DNA of 40,808 bases from the IMG/VR virus record IMGVR_UViG_2778261545_000004; one strand, given 5' to 3'. Made by a program: the position numbers and the translations under genes. A model generated the notes under the pieces. It was given only the letters and a program-made list of their open reading frames with translations, made no database searches and was not told the DNA's origin. Numbering within the stretch: position 1 is the first letter of the stretch; each line of letters opens with the position of its first letter. The DNA is from a virus. Lineage: Duplodnaviria > Heunggongvirae > Uroviricota > Caudoviricetes. Below, piece after piece: positions 6,199-38,291 of the stretch.

Positions 6199-6891
6199 TT
6201 AATTATGTCTCTTAAGGGTTTGCGACTGACTGATTAAGACCTTTCCAAAGACCATGAATCGGTGTTCGTTTTCGCTAGTAATTCCCCATTCACGGTAAAT
6301 CTGGTTATCAGAAATCACCAGCAGTTTGTCAGGAATCATTTGAAGTCTTTTAACGTATATTTTGTCATCAAAACCAAAGACATATATACCATCACCATCA
6401 AACTGATTGATGCTGACATCAACGAAGATGAGATCTCCTGGCTCAATGGTTGGACACATACTGTCCCCACGAACGTTGATAACTTTGATGTGATTGGCTG
6501 GTCGTCCGCCGAACATTGATACAGCATTATCAGTTCTGTATTCGATGGCATGAATCACATCAATGACATCACCGCCCTGGATAAGGCCATTTCCCGCACT
6601 GGCACTGATATCCAGCATTTCAATACGGAACACATCCTTCACCTGCGCAACATCCTCATTATTACTGTTTTTATATACAGTATTACTTTTGTGGGCAGAG
6701 GTAAAGAGATCAGCAATATCAACACCTAAGCTCTTGGCAATATTACTCAGTGTTTGTTCGGTAAATTGTTTTTGCTTACCCGTTTCTAAGCGCGAGATGT
6801 TCGCCGCATCTACTCCTATCGCTTCAGCGAGATCGGCGATTTTCATGTTCTTCGCTTGGCGAAGTTGTCTGACTCGGTTTCCTATGTTCAT
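6199..6891 (-). CDS. CI-like prophage repressor (HTH domain plus S24 LexA-like autopeptidase domain)
   Basis: 230 aa; N-terminal HTH, C-terminal peptidase region with the conserved Ser (GDSMCP) and Lys (VKRL); divergent from a Cro-like gene. Confidence 0.9.
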   Translation of the reverse strand: MNIGNRVRQLRQAKNMKIADLAEAIGVDAANISRLETGKQKQFTEQTLSNIAKSLGVDIADLFTSAHKSNTVYKNSNNEDVAQVKDVFRIEMLDISASAGNGLIQGGDVIDVIHAIEYRTDNAVSMFGGRPANHIKVINVRGDSMCPTIEPGDLIFVDVSINQFDGDGIYVFGFDDKIYVKRLQMIPDKLLVISDNQIYREWGITSENEHRFMVFGKVLISQSQTLKRHN

Positions 6892-6911
6892 GCGTTTATT
6901 ACATTTCTTTA

Positions 6912-6974
6912 TTGCGTGATAAGCAAATCAACTTGCGCAAAATAATTGCGTGAAATAACATGCATAACGCGCAA
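6912..6974. promoter_or_regulatory. OR-like operator region between repressor and cro
   Basis: TTGCGTGATAAGCAA (6912-6926) and ATGCATAACGCGCAA (6960-6974) share the TTGC-N7-GCAA architecture of the OL copies. Confidence 0.45.
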
Positions 6975-6988
6975 TATTTGGAGGGCGT

Positions 6989-7249
6989 ATGCAATCACCA
7001 TTACGAAATGTGCGTAAGGCGCATGGTTTCACTTTGCAGCATGTTGCTGCGGGTGTTCAAATCAATCCAGCGACGTTGAGTCGTATTGAGAGGCTGGAGC
7101 AGATTCCATCTATCGAGCTTGCAGAACGTTTAGCCAATTTTTTTAAGGGTGAAGTCAGCGAAATGCAGATTCTTTATCCGGCACGTTTTCAATCTAGCCA
7201 AAACCAGAATGGGTTTAAACCACAGGAACAGGAGGTGAACCGTGGGTAA
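6989..7249 (+). CDS. Cro-like HTH transcriptional regulator
   Basis: 86 aa, HTH (GFTLQHVAAGVQINPATLSRIER), divergent from the repressor; GGAGG upstream. Confidence 0.8.
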   Translation: MQSPLRNVRKAHGFTLQHVAAGVQINPATLSRIERLEQIPSIELAERLANFFKGEVSEMQILYPARFQSSQNQNGFKPQEQEVNRG

Positions 7250-7793
7250 GCATCACTGGAAAGTAGAAAAACAGCCTGAGTGGTACGTGAAAGCTGTCAG
7301 AAAAACTATCGCAAAGTTGCCGGGTGGTTACGCTGAAGCAGCTGACTGGCTGGATGTAACAGAGAACGCATTATTTAACCGCCTTCGTGCCGATGGCGAT
7401 CAGATTTTCCCGCTGGGATGGGCAATGGTTTTGCAACGTGCTGGTGGAACTCACTTCATTGCTGACGCTGTGGCGCAGTCTGCAAATGGCGTCTTTGTGT
7501 CTCTTCCTGATGTCGAGGATGTGGACAACGCCGATATCAACCAACGCCTGCTGGAGGTCATTGAACAGATCGGCAGTTATTCAAAACAGATTCGTTCAGC
7601 AATTGAAGACGGTGTAGTGGAACCGCATGAGAAGACAGCAATTAACGACGAGCTGTACCTCTCAATTTCGAAGCTGCAGGAGCATGCAGCACTGGTCTAC
7701 AAAATCTTTTGCGTTTCAGAAAGTAGTGACGCCCGCGAGTGTGCAGCTCCGGGCGCCGTGGCGTGTCGTGACTGTGGAGAAACTAACGCATGA
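7242..7793 (+). CDS. Early regulatory protein (CII-like / YmfL-like)
   Basis: 183 aa, GTG start with AGGAGGTGA upstream, overlaps cro stop; position immediately after cro. Confidence 0.55.
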
Positions 7794-8128
7794 ACAGTTT
7801 AACAACACACTACCGTCGCTCGCAACTGATTGCGCTTCCTGTACCGGGTGGAAAAGCGAAGGTGGAGTATTGCTATGCAGTAAATGTACCAGGTGACAGG
7901 GAAATTGTAACCCACAGCTTTGCTGAGTGGGCTGTGGGTGATTTCAACCGGCAGAAGGAGACAGTCCTTTGCGACAAGTTAACCGCTGGTTCAAAGATCA
8001 CTACGGAGTGCCCGTCAGAGTCATTCGTTGGGAGCCGGAAACACAACGAGTTATCTACCTCCGCGAAGGCTATGAGCATGAGTGCTTCAGCCCGCTCGAA
8101 CAGTTTCGTCGTAAATTCAGGGAAATAG
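7790..8128 (+). CDS. Hypothetical ORF (frame uncertain; see finding on frame switch)
   Basis: ATGA stop-start overlap with the upstream gene; N-terminal half looks protein-like, C-terminal half is Ser/Thr-rich and looks out of frame. Confidence 0.3.
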
Positions 8129-8148
8129 AGGTCGGTCATGAGCACTAA
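7969..8148 (+). CDS. Alternative small ORF in the neighbouring frame (TTG start), 59 aa
   Basis: AAGGAG 9 nt upstream of TTG; translation [32 protein letters not shown]... is protein-like; below the ORF-track length cutoff. Confidence 0.3.
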
Positions 8149-9079
8149 ATTAACCGGCTATGTATGGGATGGTTGCGCTGCATCAGGCATGAAATTATCC
8201 AGCGTGGCAATTATGGCCCGCCTGGCTGATTTCAGTAATGACGAAGGTGTGTGTTGGCCATCAATTGAAACCATTGCCCGTCAGATTGGCGCGGGGATGA
8301 GTACCGTCAGGACGGCTATCGCACGGCTGGAAGCAGAAGGCTGGTTAACGCGTAAGGCGCGTCGCCAGGGTAACCGCAATGCGTCGAATGTTTATCAGCT
8401 TAACGTTGCGAAGCTTCAGGCAGCGGCATTTTCTCAACTGTCAGATTCTGACCCGTCAAAATCTGACGCATCAAAATCTGACCCGTCAAAATTTGATGCG
8501 TCGAAATCTGGCAAAAAAGCGGGTTTTCACCCGTCAGAATCTGGCGGGGATCCGTCAGTAAAATCAAAACATGATCCGTCAGATAAAAAACCTTCTCGTC
8601 CGGACGCTTCGCAACCGGACACGCAGACGGATGAACAGGATTTTTTAACTCGCCATCCTGATGCGGTTGTATTCAGCCCTAAAAAGCGCCATTGGGGAAC
8701 GCAGGATGATTTGACCTGCGCACAGTGGCTCTGGAAAAAAATCATCGCCCTGTACGAGCAAGCCGCCGAATGTGACGGCGAGGTGGTTCGTCCCAAAGAA
8801 CCGAACTGGACAGCCTGGGCAAACGAAATTCGCCTGATGTGTGTGCAGGATGGTCGTACTCACAAACAAATCTGCGAGATGTACAGCCGCGTCAGCCGCG
8901 ATCCGTTCTGGTGCCGTAACGTGCTCAGCCCGTCGAAGTTGCGGGAAAAATGGGATGAGCTTTCCCTGCGCTTATCACCGTCCGTCAGCACGTACACCGA
9001 AAAACGCGAAGACCCGTACTTCAAATCCAGTTACGACAACGTGGACTACAGCCAGATCCCGGCAGGATTCAGGGGGTGA
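8138..9079 (+). CDS. Replication initiator protein (O-like: N-terminal HTH domain, low-complexity linker, C-terminal domain)
   Basis: 313 aa; GAGG RBS; iteron array lies inside the linker-coding region as in lambda O. Confidence 0.7.
   Translation: MSTKLTGYVWDGCAASGMKLSSVAIMARLADFSNDEGVCWPSIETIARQIGAGMSTVRTAIARLEAEGWLTRKARRQGNRNASNVYQLNVAKLQAAAFSQLSDSDPSKSDASKSDPSKFDASKSGKKAGFHPSESGGDPSVKSKHDPSDKKPSRPDASQPDTQTDEQDFLTRHPDAVVFSPKKRHWGTQDDLTCAQWLWKKIIALYEQAAECDGEVVRPKEPNWTAWANEIRLMCVQDGRTHKQICEMYSRVSRDPFWCRNVLSPSKLREKWDELSLRLSPSVSTYTEKREDPYFKSSYDNVDYSQIPAGFRG
8447..8590 (+). repeat. Iteron array (probable replication origin) inside the O-like gene
   Basis: At least five copies of CCGTCA(A/G)(A/T)A(A/T)-type repeats, including two longer TCTGACCCGTCAAAAT units. 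Confidence 0.5.
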
Positions 9080-9081
9080 TC

Positions 9082-9570
9082 ATGAGTCTTTTGAATGAAG
9101 TTCAGAAATTCATTGAAGCCCATCCGGGATGTACTTCCGGAGACATTGCGGATGCTTTTGCAGGTTACTCACGGCAGCGCGTTCTGCAGTCAGCAAGCAA
9201 GTTACGTCAGAGTGGGCGTGTGGCTCACCGTTGTGAAGGAGATACACGCAGACATTTCCCGCGCCTGACTGAGAGAGCGCAGGAACCGGAACCACAACCA
9301 GTTCGAGAAACCAGACCTGTGCGCAATTTCTATGTCGGCACTAACGATCCACGGGTGATTTTGTGCCTGACCCGCCAGGCTGAAGAACTGGAGTCCAGGG
9401 GCTTATACCGTCGTGCTGCAACCGTGTGGATGGCGGCATTCCGTGAAAGCCACTCCCAGCCAGAACGAAACAATTTTCTGGCGCGTCGTGAGCGGTGCTT
9501 ACGGAAAAGCAGCAAGCGCGCTGCATCGGGTGAAGAGTGGTATCTGTCAGGGAATTACGTGGGGGCTTAA
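9082..9570 (+). CDS. Putative transcriptional regulator (winged-helix N-terminus, PerC-like C-terminus)
   Basis: AGGGGG RBS 5 nt before ATG 9082; C-terminal AEELESRGLYRRAATVWMAAF resembles PerC-family proteins (from memory). Confidence 0.45.
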   Translation: MSLLNEVQKFIEAHPGCTSGDIADAFAGYSRQRVLQSASKLRQSGRVAHRCEGDTRRHFPRLTERAQEPEPQPVRETRPVRNFYVGTNDPRVILCLTRQAEELESRGLYRRAATVWMAAFRESHSQPERNNFLARRERCLRKSSKRAASGEEWYLSGNYVGA

Positions 9571-10223
9571 TGAGTAATAAATATTGCCAGGCGCTGGTGG
9601 AACTGCGGAACAAACCAGCCCATGAACTGAAGGAAGTGGGCGATCAGTGGCGCACGCCGGACAACATTTTCTGGGGAATTAACACCCTGTTTGGCCCGTT
9701 TGTTCTGGATCTGTTTACTGACGGTGATAACGCCAAATGTGCCGCGTATTACACGGCGGAAGATAACGCGCTGGCGCATGACTGGTCAGAACGTCTTGCG
9801 GAGCTTAAAGGTGCTGCCTTTGGTAATCCCCCATACAGCCGCGCCAGTCAGCATGAGGGACAATACATCACCGGCATGCGTTACATCATGAAACATGCCA
9901 GTGCCATGCGTGATAAGGGCGGGCGCTATGTTTTCCTGATCAAAGCTGCCACCAGCGAAGTGTGGTGGCCGGAAGATGCGGACCATATTGCTTTTATTCG
10001 CGGGCGTATTGGTTTTGAACTGCCTGCCTGGTTTATCCCGAAGGATGAGAAGCAGGTGCCGACAGGCGCTTTCTTCGCTGGTGCTATTGCTGTTTTCGAC
10101 AAGACCTGGAAGGGACCGGCAATCAGCTACATCGGGCGCGATGAACTTGAGGCATGTGGTGAAGCCTTTCTGGTGCAGGTTCGCCAGCAGGCGGAAAAAC
10201 TGGTCAGGGAGATGGCGGCATGA
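9570..10223 (+). CDS. Phage DNA N6-adenine methyltransferase (Dam-like), orphan
   Basis: NPPY catalytic motif (FGNPPYS); GGGGG RBS; start ATG 9570 overlaps the upstream stop; no cognate restriction gene adjacent. Confidence 0.8.
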   Translation: MSNKYCQALVELRNKPAHELKEVGDQWRTPDNIFWGINTLFGPFVLDLFTDGDNAKCAAYYTAEDNALAHDWSERLAELKGAAFGNPPYSRASQHEGQYITGMRYIMKHASAMRDKGGRYVFLIKAATSEVWWPEDADHIAFIRGRIGFELPAWFIPKDEKQVPTGAFFAGAIAVFDKTWKGPAISYIGRDELEACGEAFLVQVRQQAEKLVREMAA

Positions 10224-10546
10224 CGACGTTAACTCAATGCCAGCAGCAGGTGCTGGATATGCTGATTTCTTACCAGAAAGAGCGTGGCTTTCCGCCAACC
10301 AATCAGGAGGTGGCAACCATGCTGGGATACCGTTCAGTGAATGCAGCGGTAGAGCATCTTCGTGCACTGGAGAAAAAAGGCGTCATCACGATAAAGCGTG
10401 GCGTGGCCCGGGGGATAACGCTTCATACCGCGGTGAAGGACGACGACAGCGAGGCGGTCGGGATTATCCGCGCACTGCTTGCCAGTGAGGAAAACGCCAG
10501 GCTGCGTGCAGCCCACTGGTTACATGAGAGAGGCCTGAAAGTATGA
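10220..10546 (+). CDS. LexA N-terminal DNA-binding-domain homologue lacking the autopeptidase domain
   Basis: 108 aa; LTQCQQQVLDMLISYQKERGFPPTNQEVATMLGYRSVNAAVEHLRALEKKGVI closely matches the LexA winged-HTH; no S24 domain. Confidence 0.7.
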   Translation: MTTLTQCQQQVLDMLISYQKERGFPPTNQEVATMLGYRSVNAAVEHLRALEKKGVITIKRGVARGITLHTAVKDDDSEAVGIIRALLASEENARLRAAHWLHERGLKV

Positions 10547-10932
10547 AGCTGATCTTGCCTTTCCCGCCCAGCGTGAACACGTACTGGCGACACCCCAACA
10601 AAGGGGCGTTTGCTGGTAAGAGTCTGATAAGCGCGGTGGGGCGAAAATTCCAGAGCGCGGCGTGCGCAGCAATAGTTGAGCAGTTACGTCGTCTGCCGAA
10701 ACCAACGTCGGCACCTGCTTCAGTGGAGATCGTGTTGTTTCCTCCGGATAACCGGATCCGCGATCTGGACAACTATAACAAGGCGCTGTTTGACGCCCTG
10801 ACCCACGCGGGTGTGTGGGAAGACGACAGTCAGGTGAAAAGAATGCTGGTGGAGTGGGGACCGGTTATCCCGGGAGGGAAGGTCGAGATCACTATCAGTA
10901 AGTACGAGAAAACGGCGGGTGCAGCCGCCTGA
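10543..10932 (+). CDS. rusA: Holliday junction resolvase RusA
   Basis: 129 aa, RusA-like N-terminus (LPFPPSVNTYWRH) and acidic catalytic region (DLDNYNKALFDAL). Confidence 0.85.
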   Translation: MKLILPFPPSVNTYWRHPNKGAFAGKSLISAVGRKFQSAACAAIVEQLRRLPKPTSAPASVEIVLFPPDNRIRDLDNYNKALFDALTHAGVWEDDSQVKRMLVEWGPVIPGGKVEITISKYEKTAGAAA

Positions 10933-13150: not shown

Positions 13151-13197
13151 CCCCGTAAACTTTATGTTTACGGGGGAAGGTTATTTCTTTTTTTTAT
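13151..13197. terminator. Bidirectional hairpin terminator between Q and the convergent TIR-like gene
   Basis: CCCCGTAAAC-TTTAT-GTTTACGGGG with T-rich tracts on both sides. Confidence 0.6.
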
Positions 13198-13996
13198 TAC
13201 TTTCAGATAATCGTCGGTTTAATGTGTATTTTATTTGGTTCCTAATCATTTTTTCAGGAATGTCATATTTGTCTAAGAATGATATTATTTCATCCTCGTC
13301 AAGCAATCCATTCTTTATAATTTCATCTATCTGTTTTTGTAGATACCAAACATCCTTCTGTTCTACAGGAGTTAAATTCATATGGCTATTTATGGAGTTG
13401 ATAGTAGCATCACGTTCAAGAACTCTAATCCTTTGATTTAATGAACGAGTGTTTTGTAATATTTCAGATAAAAGATCTTGTTCAGTACGTGGTTTTACTT
13501 CTTCAGTTGGAGGGTATTGATCTAAAGCTCGTTTAAAATTGTTTTCAAATTGCTCCCAGTATGTATTAAAAACTTGCTTTAGAATACGGTCATCTAAAGA
13601 TTTATCGACAAGACAATTGTTTATTGTCCTTACTAATTCCCAAACACTCTCTTTATTTGGCGTTGTGTGATTGAATTGAGCAAGTGGATCTTTTAAATCT
13701 TCTGGTTTTAAGTCAATCAAGAATGTACAAACTTTATTTGTTGAAAGTCCTTTTGCTAGTGCTCCTGTTTCAAACAAAATCCATGGTTTATTTTTATTTT
13801 CTTGTGTCAAACATACAATTCCGACAGATACATCTTTTAATTTATCATTAATTTCAGAGAACCATATAGCGCCACGATCAATATCTCTGGTTGAAATCCA
13901 TGGCTGCGAAGCTTGGATAACACACTTCAGCCAGTCGCTAATAAGTTCTGCAACAGCTTGACTTCTTTGCCCAGACCAACTTATGAACACTTTCAT
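13181..13996 (-). CDS. TIR-like domain protein with C-terminal helical domain (moron)
   Basis: 271 aa from MKVFISWSG (TGGAG 6 nt upstream); motifs DIDRG, VGIVCLT, PWILFETG match TIR consensus by eye; AT-rich; reverse orientation between Q and lysis genes. Confidence 0.55.
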   Translation of the reverse strand: MKVFISWSGQRSQAVAELISDWLKCVIQASQPWISTRDIDRGAIWFSEINDKLKDVSVGIVCLTQENKNKPWILFETGALAKGLSTNKVCTFLIDLKPEDLKDPLAQFNHTTPNKESVWELVRTINNCLVDKSLDDRILKQVFNTYWEQFENNFKRALDQYPPTEEVKPRTEQDLLSEILQNTRSLNQRIRVLERDATINSINSHMNLTPVEQKDVWYLQKQIDEIIKNGLLDEDEIISFLDKYDIPEKMIRNQIKYTLNRRLSESNKKKK

Positions 13997-14120
13997 TATG
14001 TACTCCATGTAATCACTCAAAAGGAACTGAAATTTACATTAAAAATTAAATAAAATCACTCACGCGGTCCGCAGAAACCATTGTAATCTGTTATGAGTGG
14101 TTACTTCGCCACACAACTTA

Positions 14121-36401: not shown

Positions 36402-38291
36402 TTAATCGTATTTTGGCCATACTTTCAATGCAATTTCCCCCAACTTTTTACCTCGCTCCAGTATTTCACTCTCATCCCATTTATCCTTAAGTATAAGTGG
36501 TATGTTCAGTCGTAGATTGGTGTGGACGATGAGAGCATCACGTTTTTTCAGAAATACAGCATTCTGAACGGAACGGTTTACGCTAAGGTTAAGCAAAGTT
36601 AGATTTCCCAACGTAGCTATCGCTTGTTGCCGTTTCCTTACCAGTAGCTGTTCAGGGGTAAGATCGGTTCCAGACAGAACAATTTGGTTCATTACCGTAG
36701 CATCTGAATTTGTCACCATATGACCATTTTCGAGAGGCCAACAGGAATACCAACTTTGAGGCATAAGATGATCGATATCGAGATTAGAAAGATTTGGAAC
36801 ATCAGGCTTTTCTGTCTTTACTTGGCGACAAAGTTCTCTTTCAAGTTCCGTTAACATTGAGCGCATTTTCGGTGCGTCGAGCCTGCCAGGATAAAGTGGA
36901 GCATTGATGCAAGCGTTGAGAAATTCTGAGTCCCCAGGCCAACGTGAGGCTTCGCCATTTAAGCTATTGAGGATATTACGTAACTCAATACTGGAAATTT
37001 CCGTTTTAGACAAGTGTCGCAATACATTCATAAATACATTGTTGTAATTCTTTGGCGTCAGGCCACATACGGATCTTCGTACTACGTAGGAGACAAGATC
37101 ATTATACATGGCTGCTTTCTCATCATCGGCGATGTTAGCTATCGAAATGAACAAAGCAAGCGGATAGAGTGTCGTCACATCATAGGCTGCGATGCGATGT
37201 CCAAAGTGTGAGATGGGGGTTGTGCCAAAACCACCAACCAATTCTTTATATTGTGATGCATATTGTTTGAGGCGCTTTACTTGCAGATCTGCTCGTTGTG
37301 AAGGCAAGTCCTTACTTACATAATCACGATACTCATTGTAAAGGCGAGACAGATCAATTTCACGCTGCCTTTCTGATTGCAATGTCGCATGTACAAGCCA
37401 CTCCATGCGTGGTTTATTAATACGTCCACGGCGTTGCTTTTCCGACCAGTATTTATCTTCAAAGATCTTCCACTCATTTTCATATAATTCAATAGTATTA
37501 ATATTTTCATGCTCAGCGCACATAAAGATATAGTTGCGAATAAGATCCGTTGCATGAAGTTCCGCTCCTCGCCCATTTAATGTTTCAAAAATTATTTGGG
37601 CATCATCTTCAGCTTCGAGAAATATGCTTACCAGTTTCAGATCCGTCAAGACAGCCTCAATTAGTGCTACAGCATTTTCTTGTGGTGAGCGGTTTTCTAT
37701 TTTAATCCATTTTATAAAGGCTTCAGTAAAAAACCATAATGCCTCTAGTGACGGCGGGTGGTTGAAATGTTTACGTAACGTACCATGTTGCGTGAAGCTA
37801 TCAGAAAATACATTACGGAGATCGTCAATATTATCAACATTAAGACTTTGAATAAAATGAGTTTGATCTCGAAAAGTTGGCCACAGTTTGAAGCATTCTA
37901 CCTTTTTATTTCTCATCGTTGCTTCGTTTGTATTTTTCAAGCAAGTCAATACTAACCCTTCCAGTTCAGAAAGGCCTGTAGCACGCAATGATAATCGAAT
38001 GGATGCCAGAATATATTGAAGAGTGGTTAAACGTTGCTGGCCGTCAATAATATGTATGGTATCTACACCTAACAAGCTGTTTTTGAGTTGAGGTTCCAGC
38101 ACCACCGCGCCGAGGAAATGAGGGGTTGGTTTTGTTCCCGAAAGTCGGCTCTGTGCTTTTTCGAAGATATCCTCCAGCAAAGCTGACCATTGGTTTCGTT
38201 GCGTCCATACGTAGGCACGTTGATAGAATGGAACACGATATTGTCGTTGATTTTGGAAAATTTGCTGGATGGTTAGCGTTTCGGATTTCAT
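36402..38291 (-). CDS. GmrSD-family type IV (modification-dependent) restriction endonuclease, fused DUF262-DUF1524
   Basis: 629 aa; N-terminal VPFYQRAYVW and IIDGQQRLTTL (DUF262), C-terminal DIDHLMPQSW ... GNLTLLNLSVNRS (His-Me finger); AT-rich. Confidence 0.8.
   Translation of the reverse strand: MKSETLTIQQIFQNQRQYRVPFYQRAYVWTQRNQWSALLEDIFEKAQSRLSGTKPTPHFLGAVVLEPQLKNSLLGVDTIHIIDGQQRLTTLQYILASIRLSLRATGLSELEGLVLTCLKNTNEATMRNKKVECFKLWPTFRDQTHFIQSLNVDNIDDLRNVFSDSFTQHGTLRKHFNHPPSLEALWFFTEAFIKWIKIENRSPQENAVALIEAVLTDLKLVSIFLEAEDDAQIIFETLNGRGAELHATDLIRNYIFMCAEHENINTIELYENEWKIFEDKYWSEKQRRGRINKPRMEWLVHATLQSERQREIDLSRLYNEYRDYVSKDLPSQRADLQVKRLKQYASQYKELVGGFGTTPISHFGHRIAAYDVTTLYPLALFISIANIADDEKAAMYNDLVSYVVRRSVCGLTPKNYNNVFMNVLRHLSKTEISSIELRNILNSLNGEASRWPGDSEFLNACINAPLYPGRLDAPKMRSMLTELERELCRQVKTEKPDVPNLSNLDIDHLMPQSWYSCWPLENGHMVTNSDATVMNQIVLSGTDLTPEQLLVRKRQQAIATLGNLTLLNLSVNRSVQNAVFLKKRDALIVHTNLRLNIPLILKDKWDESEILERGKKLGEIALKVWPKYD

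Follow-up and report, generated by a model that had tools for sequence, protein, structure and literature searches.

The early region of the prophage

The window, by which we mean the whole 40,808-nt stretch of tailed-phage (Caudoviricetes) DNA analyzed here, carries the following features in and around its replication genes:

7969..8148, + strand: DUF4222 gene, 5' of the initiator gene, and found in the same place in most related loci with a readable upstream region
8138..9079, + strand: O-like replication initiator, 313 aa (PHROG 391, E 2e-135; HTH_36; comparison with lambda O)
8426..8590, no strand assigned: iteron-like direct repeats inside the initiator gene, 15-bp period, consensus about CCGTCAAAATCTGAC
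9005..9079, + strand: codons of the C-terminal tail of the initiator (REDPYFKSSYDNVDYSQIPAGFRG), a tail type restricted to modules without lambda P
9082..9570, + strand: yfdN-family gene, 162 aa (ORF, Pfam, PHROGs, NCBIfam and AF2 model)
9570..10223, + strand: dam, a phage N6-adenine methyltransferase gene (family matches), next after yfdN, its start overlapping the yfdN stop

The yfdN reading frame runs from an ATG at 9082 to a TAA at 9568–9570, and comprises 162 codons plus the stop. An earlier, sequence-only reading of this DNA had given the protein 163 aa; the frame that it reported stands, and the extra residue is the stop codon, counted in. The PGAP annotation starts yfdN six nucleotides earlier, at GTG 9076, for a product of 164 aa, but two observations favor the ATG: the sequence AGGGGG is located 5 nt before it, and all distant homologues begin with MSL. 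The stop codon of the O-like gene and the start of yfdN are separated by a gap of just 2 nt, and the stop codon of yfdN overlaps the ATG of dam (TAATG, 9568–9572); the three genes thus form one packed translational unit.

The initiator and a probable origin

The initiator is built of several parts: an HTH_36 winged-helix N-domain (residues 1–99); a disordered linker (103–185), encoded by the iterons; a lambda-O-like helical C-domain (166–277), 39% identical to the C-domain of lambda O itself; and a disordered tail ending in VDYSQIPAGFRG. The iteron-like repeats at 8426–8590 are present in six to eight copies, and the linker that they encode is rich in PSKSD. By analogy with ori-lambda, which is placed in the same way within the lambda O gene, these repeats are probably the origin. 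When the PDB was searched for similar folds with the model of the initiator, winged-helix matches to the N-domain were found, and none to the lambda-O-like C-domain.

Within this phage lineage, the initiators have a mosaic make-up. Among 85 loci at least four types of N-domain occur and at least three types of C-domain (the window compared with L002, L004, L090 and L092, for example). The window possesses the lambda-O-like C-domain, type 1. The second type is found in mEp460, ST64B and cdtI, and is common to phiP27 L17, where DnaC and DnaB are encoded downstream. The third is found in phiNP and F1055.

Organization of YfdN

YfdN comprises a winged helix (residues 1–60), a disordered linker (63–84), a three-helix PerC domain (90–148) and a conserved tail, WYLSGNYVGA (153–162). 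The AF2 model, built on a shallow alignment of 16 sequences, has a mean pLDDT of 75.5, rising to 80–89 over residues 1–60, and its C-terminal tail is disordered. The predicted N-terminal domain consists of three helices (3–13, 19–25 and 31–44) and a beta hairpin (47–60) that would form the wing, and so has the makings of a winged-helix fold. Foldseek superimposes it on the winged helices of MepR, ArsR, BlaI and SmtB with rmsd values of 1.8–2.6 Å over 58–68 columns, at weak E-values (0.07–0.3), and on that of MarR at about 2 Å over about 60 residues, and the family profile matches MarR, SlyA and IclR chains, also weakly (E 0.001–0.04; 0.001–0.005 for MarR and SlyA). A search of PDB folds with the whole YfdN model returned winged-helix matches only, and none to the PerC domain.

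Downstream of the linker, YfdN belongs to the PerC family. The profile search with PF06069 that the sequence-only reading had called for yields a match to residues 98–149 (profile positions 5–56 of 90; E 7.7e-9) that scores 36.1 bits, above the curated gathering cut-off of 22.6 bits. Together with the predicted fold of the N-terminus, this match confirms the earlier description of the protein as a winged helix joined to a PerC-like C-terminus. PHROG 1324, annotated ‘transcriptional activator’, covers nearly the entire protein (residues 1–161; E 1.7e-78), and YfdN has the architecture of that subfamily: winged helix, linker and PerC domain in about 150–165 aa. The two-domain layout is retained in relatives that are 25–48% identical, and distant relatives also retain the C-terminal motif L[AS]Gx[YF]xG.

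What YfdN has in common with PerC of EPEC and with PchA/B/C of EHEC is the helical core of PF06069, including the motif AExLExxGLYRRAAxxW; what it adds is the N-terminal winged helix, the linker and the L[AS]Gx[YF]xG tail. PerC and Pch are small proteins of roughly 90–105 aa, and we know of no winged helix in either. The pch genes of group 1, for instance, are 315 bp in length (PMC5931665). Activation of ler is known for PerC and PchA/B/C; what YfdN shares with them is the PerC core.

The AraC negative regulators, or ANR family (Aar, for example), are relatives of a different kind. The NCBIfam model for this family (NF033650, ANR_neg_reg) matches the same stretch of YfdN as does PerC, with E 3e-5 and 23.6 bits, below the cut-off of 32, so that by this score YfdN falls short of membership. 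The predicted folds are nevertheless close: the PerC domain of YfdN superimposes on 60-aa phage proteins of the ANR family with rmsd values of 0.5–0.6 Å and TM-scores of 0.91–0.93, in spite of weak sequence similarity. Unlike YfdN, ANR proteins have a single domain.

A common prophage gene

yfdN is a common gene of E. coli prophages, known and already catalogued. The window protein is 100% identical to WP_001305611.1, a ‘PerC family transcriptional regulator’, and several E. coli chromosomes contain prophages that match positions 8100–9600 of the window with 100% DNA identity; there the gene is often named yfdN. Of 5426 complete E. coli genomes, 2732 contain the DNA spanning O and yfdN, which is also present in phages SfII, SfV, SfIV, mEp460, ST64B and Ayreon as well as in Stx2c phages; the protein family is distributed across the prophages of the Enterobacterales. 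When distant family members were compared with sequenced phages by tblastn, Klebsiella phage Kp4866-6 was the sole addition, and in the plasmid collection matches were confined to phage-like circles and to prophages mislabelled as plasmids. The prophage of the window is related to SfII, SfV and ST64B, and an identical E. coli copy is integrated next to icd.

The YfdN of E. coli K-12 (b2357, in the cryptic prophage CPS-53/KpLE1) belongs to the same family, the members of which are 96–100% identical across E. coli. Its neighbor is shared, too: yfdO is the 3' remnant of an initiator of the window's type, and the same arrangement is seen at L103 and L104. We find no substantive difference between the K-12 protein and that of the window, the copy in the window being part of a prophage that looks complete and has its initiator intact. 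yfdN has been referred to as ‘the K12 unique PerC homologue’, in a study in which its deletion was merely precautionary (PMC5931665). We found no functional study of yfdN in the literature, and YfdN is not known to activate a virulence regulon.

The lambda P slot, without a loader

The window ORFs that were scanned, with Pfam, PHROGs or NCBIfam, lie in the early region, the left arm and the right end, and not one of them matches lambda P, DnaC, DnaB or a primase. The structural genes were covered by way of a prophage that matches the window at 100% identity over 8100–9600 and has a different left arm; its PGAP annotation lists no such gene. Scans and annotation both agree with the sequence-only reading that no loader of the P or DnaC type follows the O-like gene.

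It was right, too, that yfdN takes the place of one. In the close relative P0252, the initiator is 75% identical to that of the window, with the same N- and C-domains, and the gene order is O, Phage_lambda_P (PF06992), Dam; in P0312, the initiator is 59% identical and the order is again O, Phage_lambda_P, Dam. The corresponding order in the window is O, yfdN, Dam. Position—directly 3' of an initiator whose C-domain is lambda-O-like, and ahead of Dam—is all that YfdN shares with lambda P. The two proteins differ in size and fold, and no homology between them is detectable (hhalign probability 0.14%). Nor does YfdN match any family of helicase loaders—lambda P (PF06992), DnaC/IstB AAA+, DnaD/DnaB_2 or DciA—in Pfam, NCBIfam or PHROGs at E-values up to 1, and there is no loader among its fold matches. 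Since YfdN has no homology to P, and since relatives dispense with it, the notion that it fills the role of loader is not upheld; judged by these comparisons, yfdN is an optional accessory gene rather than a replacement loader.

Replication modules that have a single origin-binding initiator, an origin within the gene for that initiator, and no phage loader or helicase are reportedly those that Weigel and Seitz termed ‘initiator-solo’ in 2006. The window's module resembles them in each of these respects, and differs in that its initiator retains a C-domain of the lambda O type, but with a different C-terminal tail. That replication leans on host loading factors, as had been supposed at the outset, is the natural inference, and it fits phiNP, a phage with a related solo initiator and a working example of such modules, which plaques on E. 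coli K-12 (PMC6456863).

Loss and retention of yfdN

If YfdN were needed wherever its partner initiators occur, then those initiators should never be found without it, but they are. The initiator of phiNP has an N-domain 85% identical to that of the window and a GFRS tail, and yet O is followed directly by a methyltransferase gene, with no yfdN; no loader is annotated anywhere in this genome. The loci of Klebsiella phage 1 LV-2017 and P0262, whose initiators are 71–72% identical to the window's over their full length, likewise proceed from O directly to a methyltransferase. In phage cdtI (L005, 3501–3595), codons 27–157 of yfdN have been lost in frame; the remnant is 31 codons long (1–26 plus the last five) and retains the overlap with the start of dam. 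Asakura et al. reportedly described cdtI as a viable phage, in 2007.

Where yfdN is present, it stays put. Scans with single proteins gathered 88 loci with YfdN relatives, including two groups just 30–35% identical to YfdN of the window. In all 85 of those with upstream sequence, the gene before yfdN is an initiator; the genes 3' of yfdN vary while its own position remains fixed. Adjacency alone is weak evidence for a functional link, however, because the whole early operon (cI, cro, cII/YmfL, RusA, DUF968 and, mostly, DUF4222) is largely syntenic across these loci. Nor does YfdN co-vary with either the DNA-binding domain or the C-domain of the initiator, since YfdN proteins that are 97–100% identical adjoin initiators in which both are unrelated (the window compared with mEp460 or with Stx2c phages). 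We also considered that the winged helix of YfdN might read the iterons, and rejected the idea: initiator N-domains that are ∼86% identical to the window's are paired with YfdN proteins that are only ∼30% identical to the window's.

The sole constant of the initiators that precede yfdN is their tail, which is of the GFRG type ([IL]PxGFRG) at 85 of 85 loci. Because its codons vary synonymously, this tail appears to be selected as protein sequence. That it is kept solely as the Shine-Dalgarno sequence of yfdN we rejected, for synonymous variation occurs at every codon of the tail, and the motif persists where two or three extra codons intervene before the stop. The tail of YfdN, L[AS]Gx[YF]xG (9538–9567), resembles that of the initiator, [IL]PxGFRG (9047–9076); a single pattern close to the C-terminus, [IL][AP]xx[FY]xG, covers the two. 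The likeness may be due to chance, or it may signify docking on the same target.

The constancy of the GFRG tail leaves room for a role of YfdN that is linked to replication. It might, for example, be a non-essential accessory factor for initiators that lack P, one that boosts replication by linking the GFRG tail to host DnaB–DnaC, or by clearing H-NS from the origin. Its place in the P slot of P0252 and P0312 would then make sense, as would the resemblance between the two tails and the 2-nt gap after the O stop codon, which suggests translational coupling. But phiNP and Klebsiella phage 1 have no yfdN, and cdtI has lost most of it, despite tails of the same types; YfdN is similar to no loader; the same YfdN stands beside initiators with unrelated C-domains; and in an operon that is syntenic throughout the lineage, proximity proves little by itself. 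We think this role unlikely.

Initiator tails and the genes that follow them

To place these observations more widely, initiators with a lambda-O-like C-domain were surveyed in one genome per species, giving 80 loci (L102–L181) from 80 species. By the type of their C-terminal tail they fall into the following groups:

W-type (lambda-like; NTDWIYGVDL, HWNSPEAWENTL): 39 loci; followed by lambda P in 39/39, with a PerC-like gene after P in 2
GFRG-type (DYSQIPAGFRG, LPENSGFRS): 21 loci; lambda P in 0; 3 followed by DnaC-like genes, 7 by YfdN-like genes, and others by DUF977, DUF1627, MT-A70, ParB-like or methyltransferase genes
WxxIW-type (AWAGIWQQAAEQ): 16 loci; lambda P in 0; 3 followed by genes for short PerC-only proteins
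Other tails, mixed: 4 loci; lambda P in 4/4; no further followers noted

The last ∼15 residues of the initiator thus predict whether lambda P follows: it does so at 39 of 39 loci with W-type tails, and at none of 37 with GFRG or WxxIW tails (Fisher p 1.5e-22, uncorrected for shared ancestry). Three of the GFRG-tailed relatives (L124, L132 and L133) have a DnaC-like gene of their own, which fits a DnaC-type route for initiators with this tail. Judging from the sequences, the disordered tail of the initiator is a candidate for a docking peptide—for P, in the case of lambda O, and for the host loader in modules that lack P.

PerC-like genes are commoner after initiators without P (10/37) than after those with it (2/43; Fisher p 0.01, again uncorrected for shared ancestry). 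Both of the latter are Edwardsiella prophages, in which the order is O, P, PerC-like, DUF968. Their enrichment after P-less initiators makes PerC-like genes neither a requirement of such initiators nor exclusive to them. The enrichment adds weight to the idea of a replication accessory factor, and the Edwardsiella cases, with PerC-like genes after P, take some of it away. A broader version of that idea is that YfdN and PerC-like proteins in general are replication-linked co-factors of P-less, O-type initiators that dock by way of [IL][AP]xx[FY]xG on a host target (DnaB–DnaC, or another part of the replisome), or that strip H-NS from the origin. This we regard as a long shot; if true, the PerC fold would serve in replication as well as in the regulation of virulence.

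Other P-less modules carry different small winged-helix proteins in the slot after the initiator: DUF977 (PF06163) at L123, L126, L127 and L131, and DUF1627 (PF07789) at L117, L137 and L138. Small winged-helix proteins of several families seem to recur, then, directly 3' of replication genes. YfdN, with its predicted DNA-binding winged helix and its identical position, could be another of these, and might regulate phage genes only: at a promoter between the replication genes and Q, in the decision between lysis and lysogeny, or in superinfection. Against this, we found no candidate operator for the winged helix of YfdN, and the downstream genes vary while YfdN stays. The reading also overlaps the main explanation that we offer below, and as a separate one we give it little credence.

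A probable accessory regulator in the early operon

The explanation that we favor, with a probability of about 0.6, is that YfdN is a two-domain accessory regulator of the early rightward operon. A scan of the + strand from 6800 to 10932 for promoter-like (sigma-70-like) sites reported none; since it did not report pR either, this is weak evidence. The early rightward genes are tightly packed around yfdN, which has no promoter-like site to itself and should therefore be repressed in the lysogen. It would be transcribed from pR, together with the replication genes, upon induction or infection. The winged helix would bring YfdN to DNA, and there the PerC domain would act as it does in characterized relatives, either by displacing H-NS, in the manner of Pch, or by blocking a transcription factor, in the manner of ANR proteins. 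The outcome would be the tuning of phage or host transcription in the course of lytic growth.

Both modes have precedents. H-NS is displaced by Pch and silencing is relieved (PMC4764244), and a PerC-like protein of a PICI represses LEE1 and may work in the way of an ANR anti-activator (PMC11773190). By analogy, YfdN possibly acts as an anti-silencer or as an ANR-like anti-activator. Replication, meanwhile, would be driven by the initiator alone, bound to the iterons in its own gene. We propose that it recruits the host DnaB–DnaC complex directly, because it has a tail of the GFRG type in place of the tail that is associated with P.

The sequence-only reading had leaned, instead, toward lysogenic conversion. 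On that view, YfdN would be expressed in the lysogen, or upon low-level induction, and would switch on virulence or stress regulons of the host, as PerC and PchABC do for the LEE. It is, after all, in the PerC family; the group 1 pch genes of EHEC prophages are induced by the SOS response and activate ler (PMC5931665); and overexpression of yfdN altered glycogen content in a screen of the ASKA library (PMC2853380). Family membership is an uncertain guide, however, because PchD and PchE have little or no effect on ler (PMC5931665), and the PICI protein represses LEE1 rather than activating it (PMC11773190). About half of the complete E. coli genomes contain yfdN, moreover, and most of these are presumed unlikely to carry the LEE. 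Given also that the gene lies within the repressed pR operon, with no + strand promoter-like site between 6800 and 10932, and that YfdN is not known to activate any virulence regulon, the proposal finds no support here, and we consider it very improbable. An accessory regulator of the early operon, expressed in lytic growth, remains the reading that we prefer.

Other genes of the window

Immediately beyond dam lies a gene (10220–10546, + strand) for a 108-aa protein that amounts to a LexA DNA-binding domain (PF01726, E 2.8e-19) with no matched peptidase domain. It is kept 3' of dam in most related loci, and from its sequence the protein could interfere with the SOS response or with LexA operators.

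Two further genes are probably defensive. Between Q and the lysis genes, on the opposite strand (13181–14020, –), lies one for a TIR-domain protein (Pfam TIR_2; PADLOC TIR-TM, E 1.7e-57). Near the tail-fiber end (36402–38291, –) is another, probably extra cargo, for a 629-aa methyl-directed restriction enzyme of Type IV and the GmrSD kind (Pfam GmrSD_N and GmrSD_C; PADLOC mREase_IV over its full length). A defense role for YfdN or for the initiator was considered as well and rejected, neither having a match in the PADLOC search.

Implications

yfdN itself is catalogued, and its context is more useful than the gene. That context is a widespread lambdoid lineage, including the Shigella serotype-converting phages and the Stx2c phages, that replicates with an O-type initiator and has no loader of its own. 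The short, disordered C-terminal tail of the initiator is what varies in step with the loss of P. It is a concrete candidate for the site at which P docks on lambda O, and for the means by which initiators that lack P may make use of DnaB–DnaC from the host.
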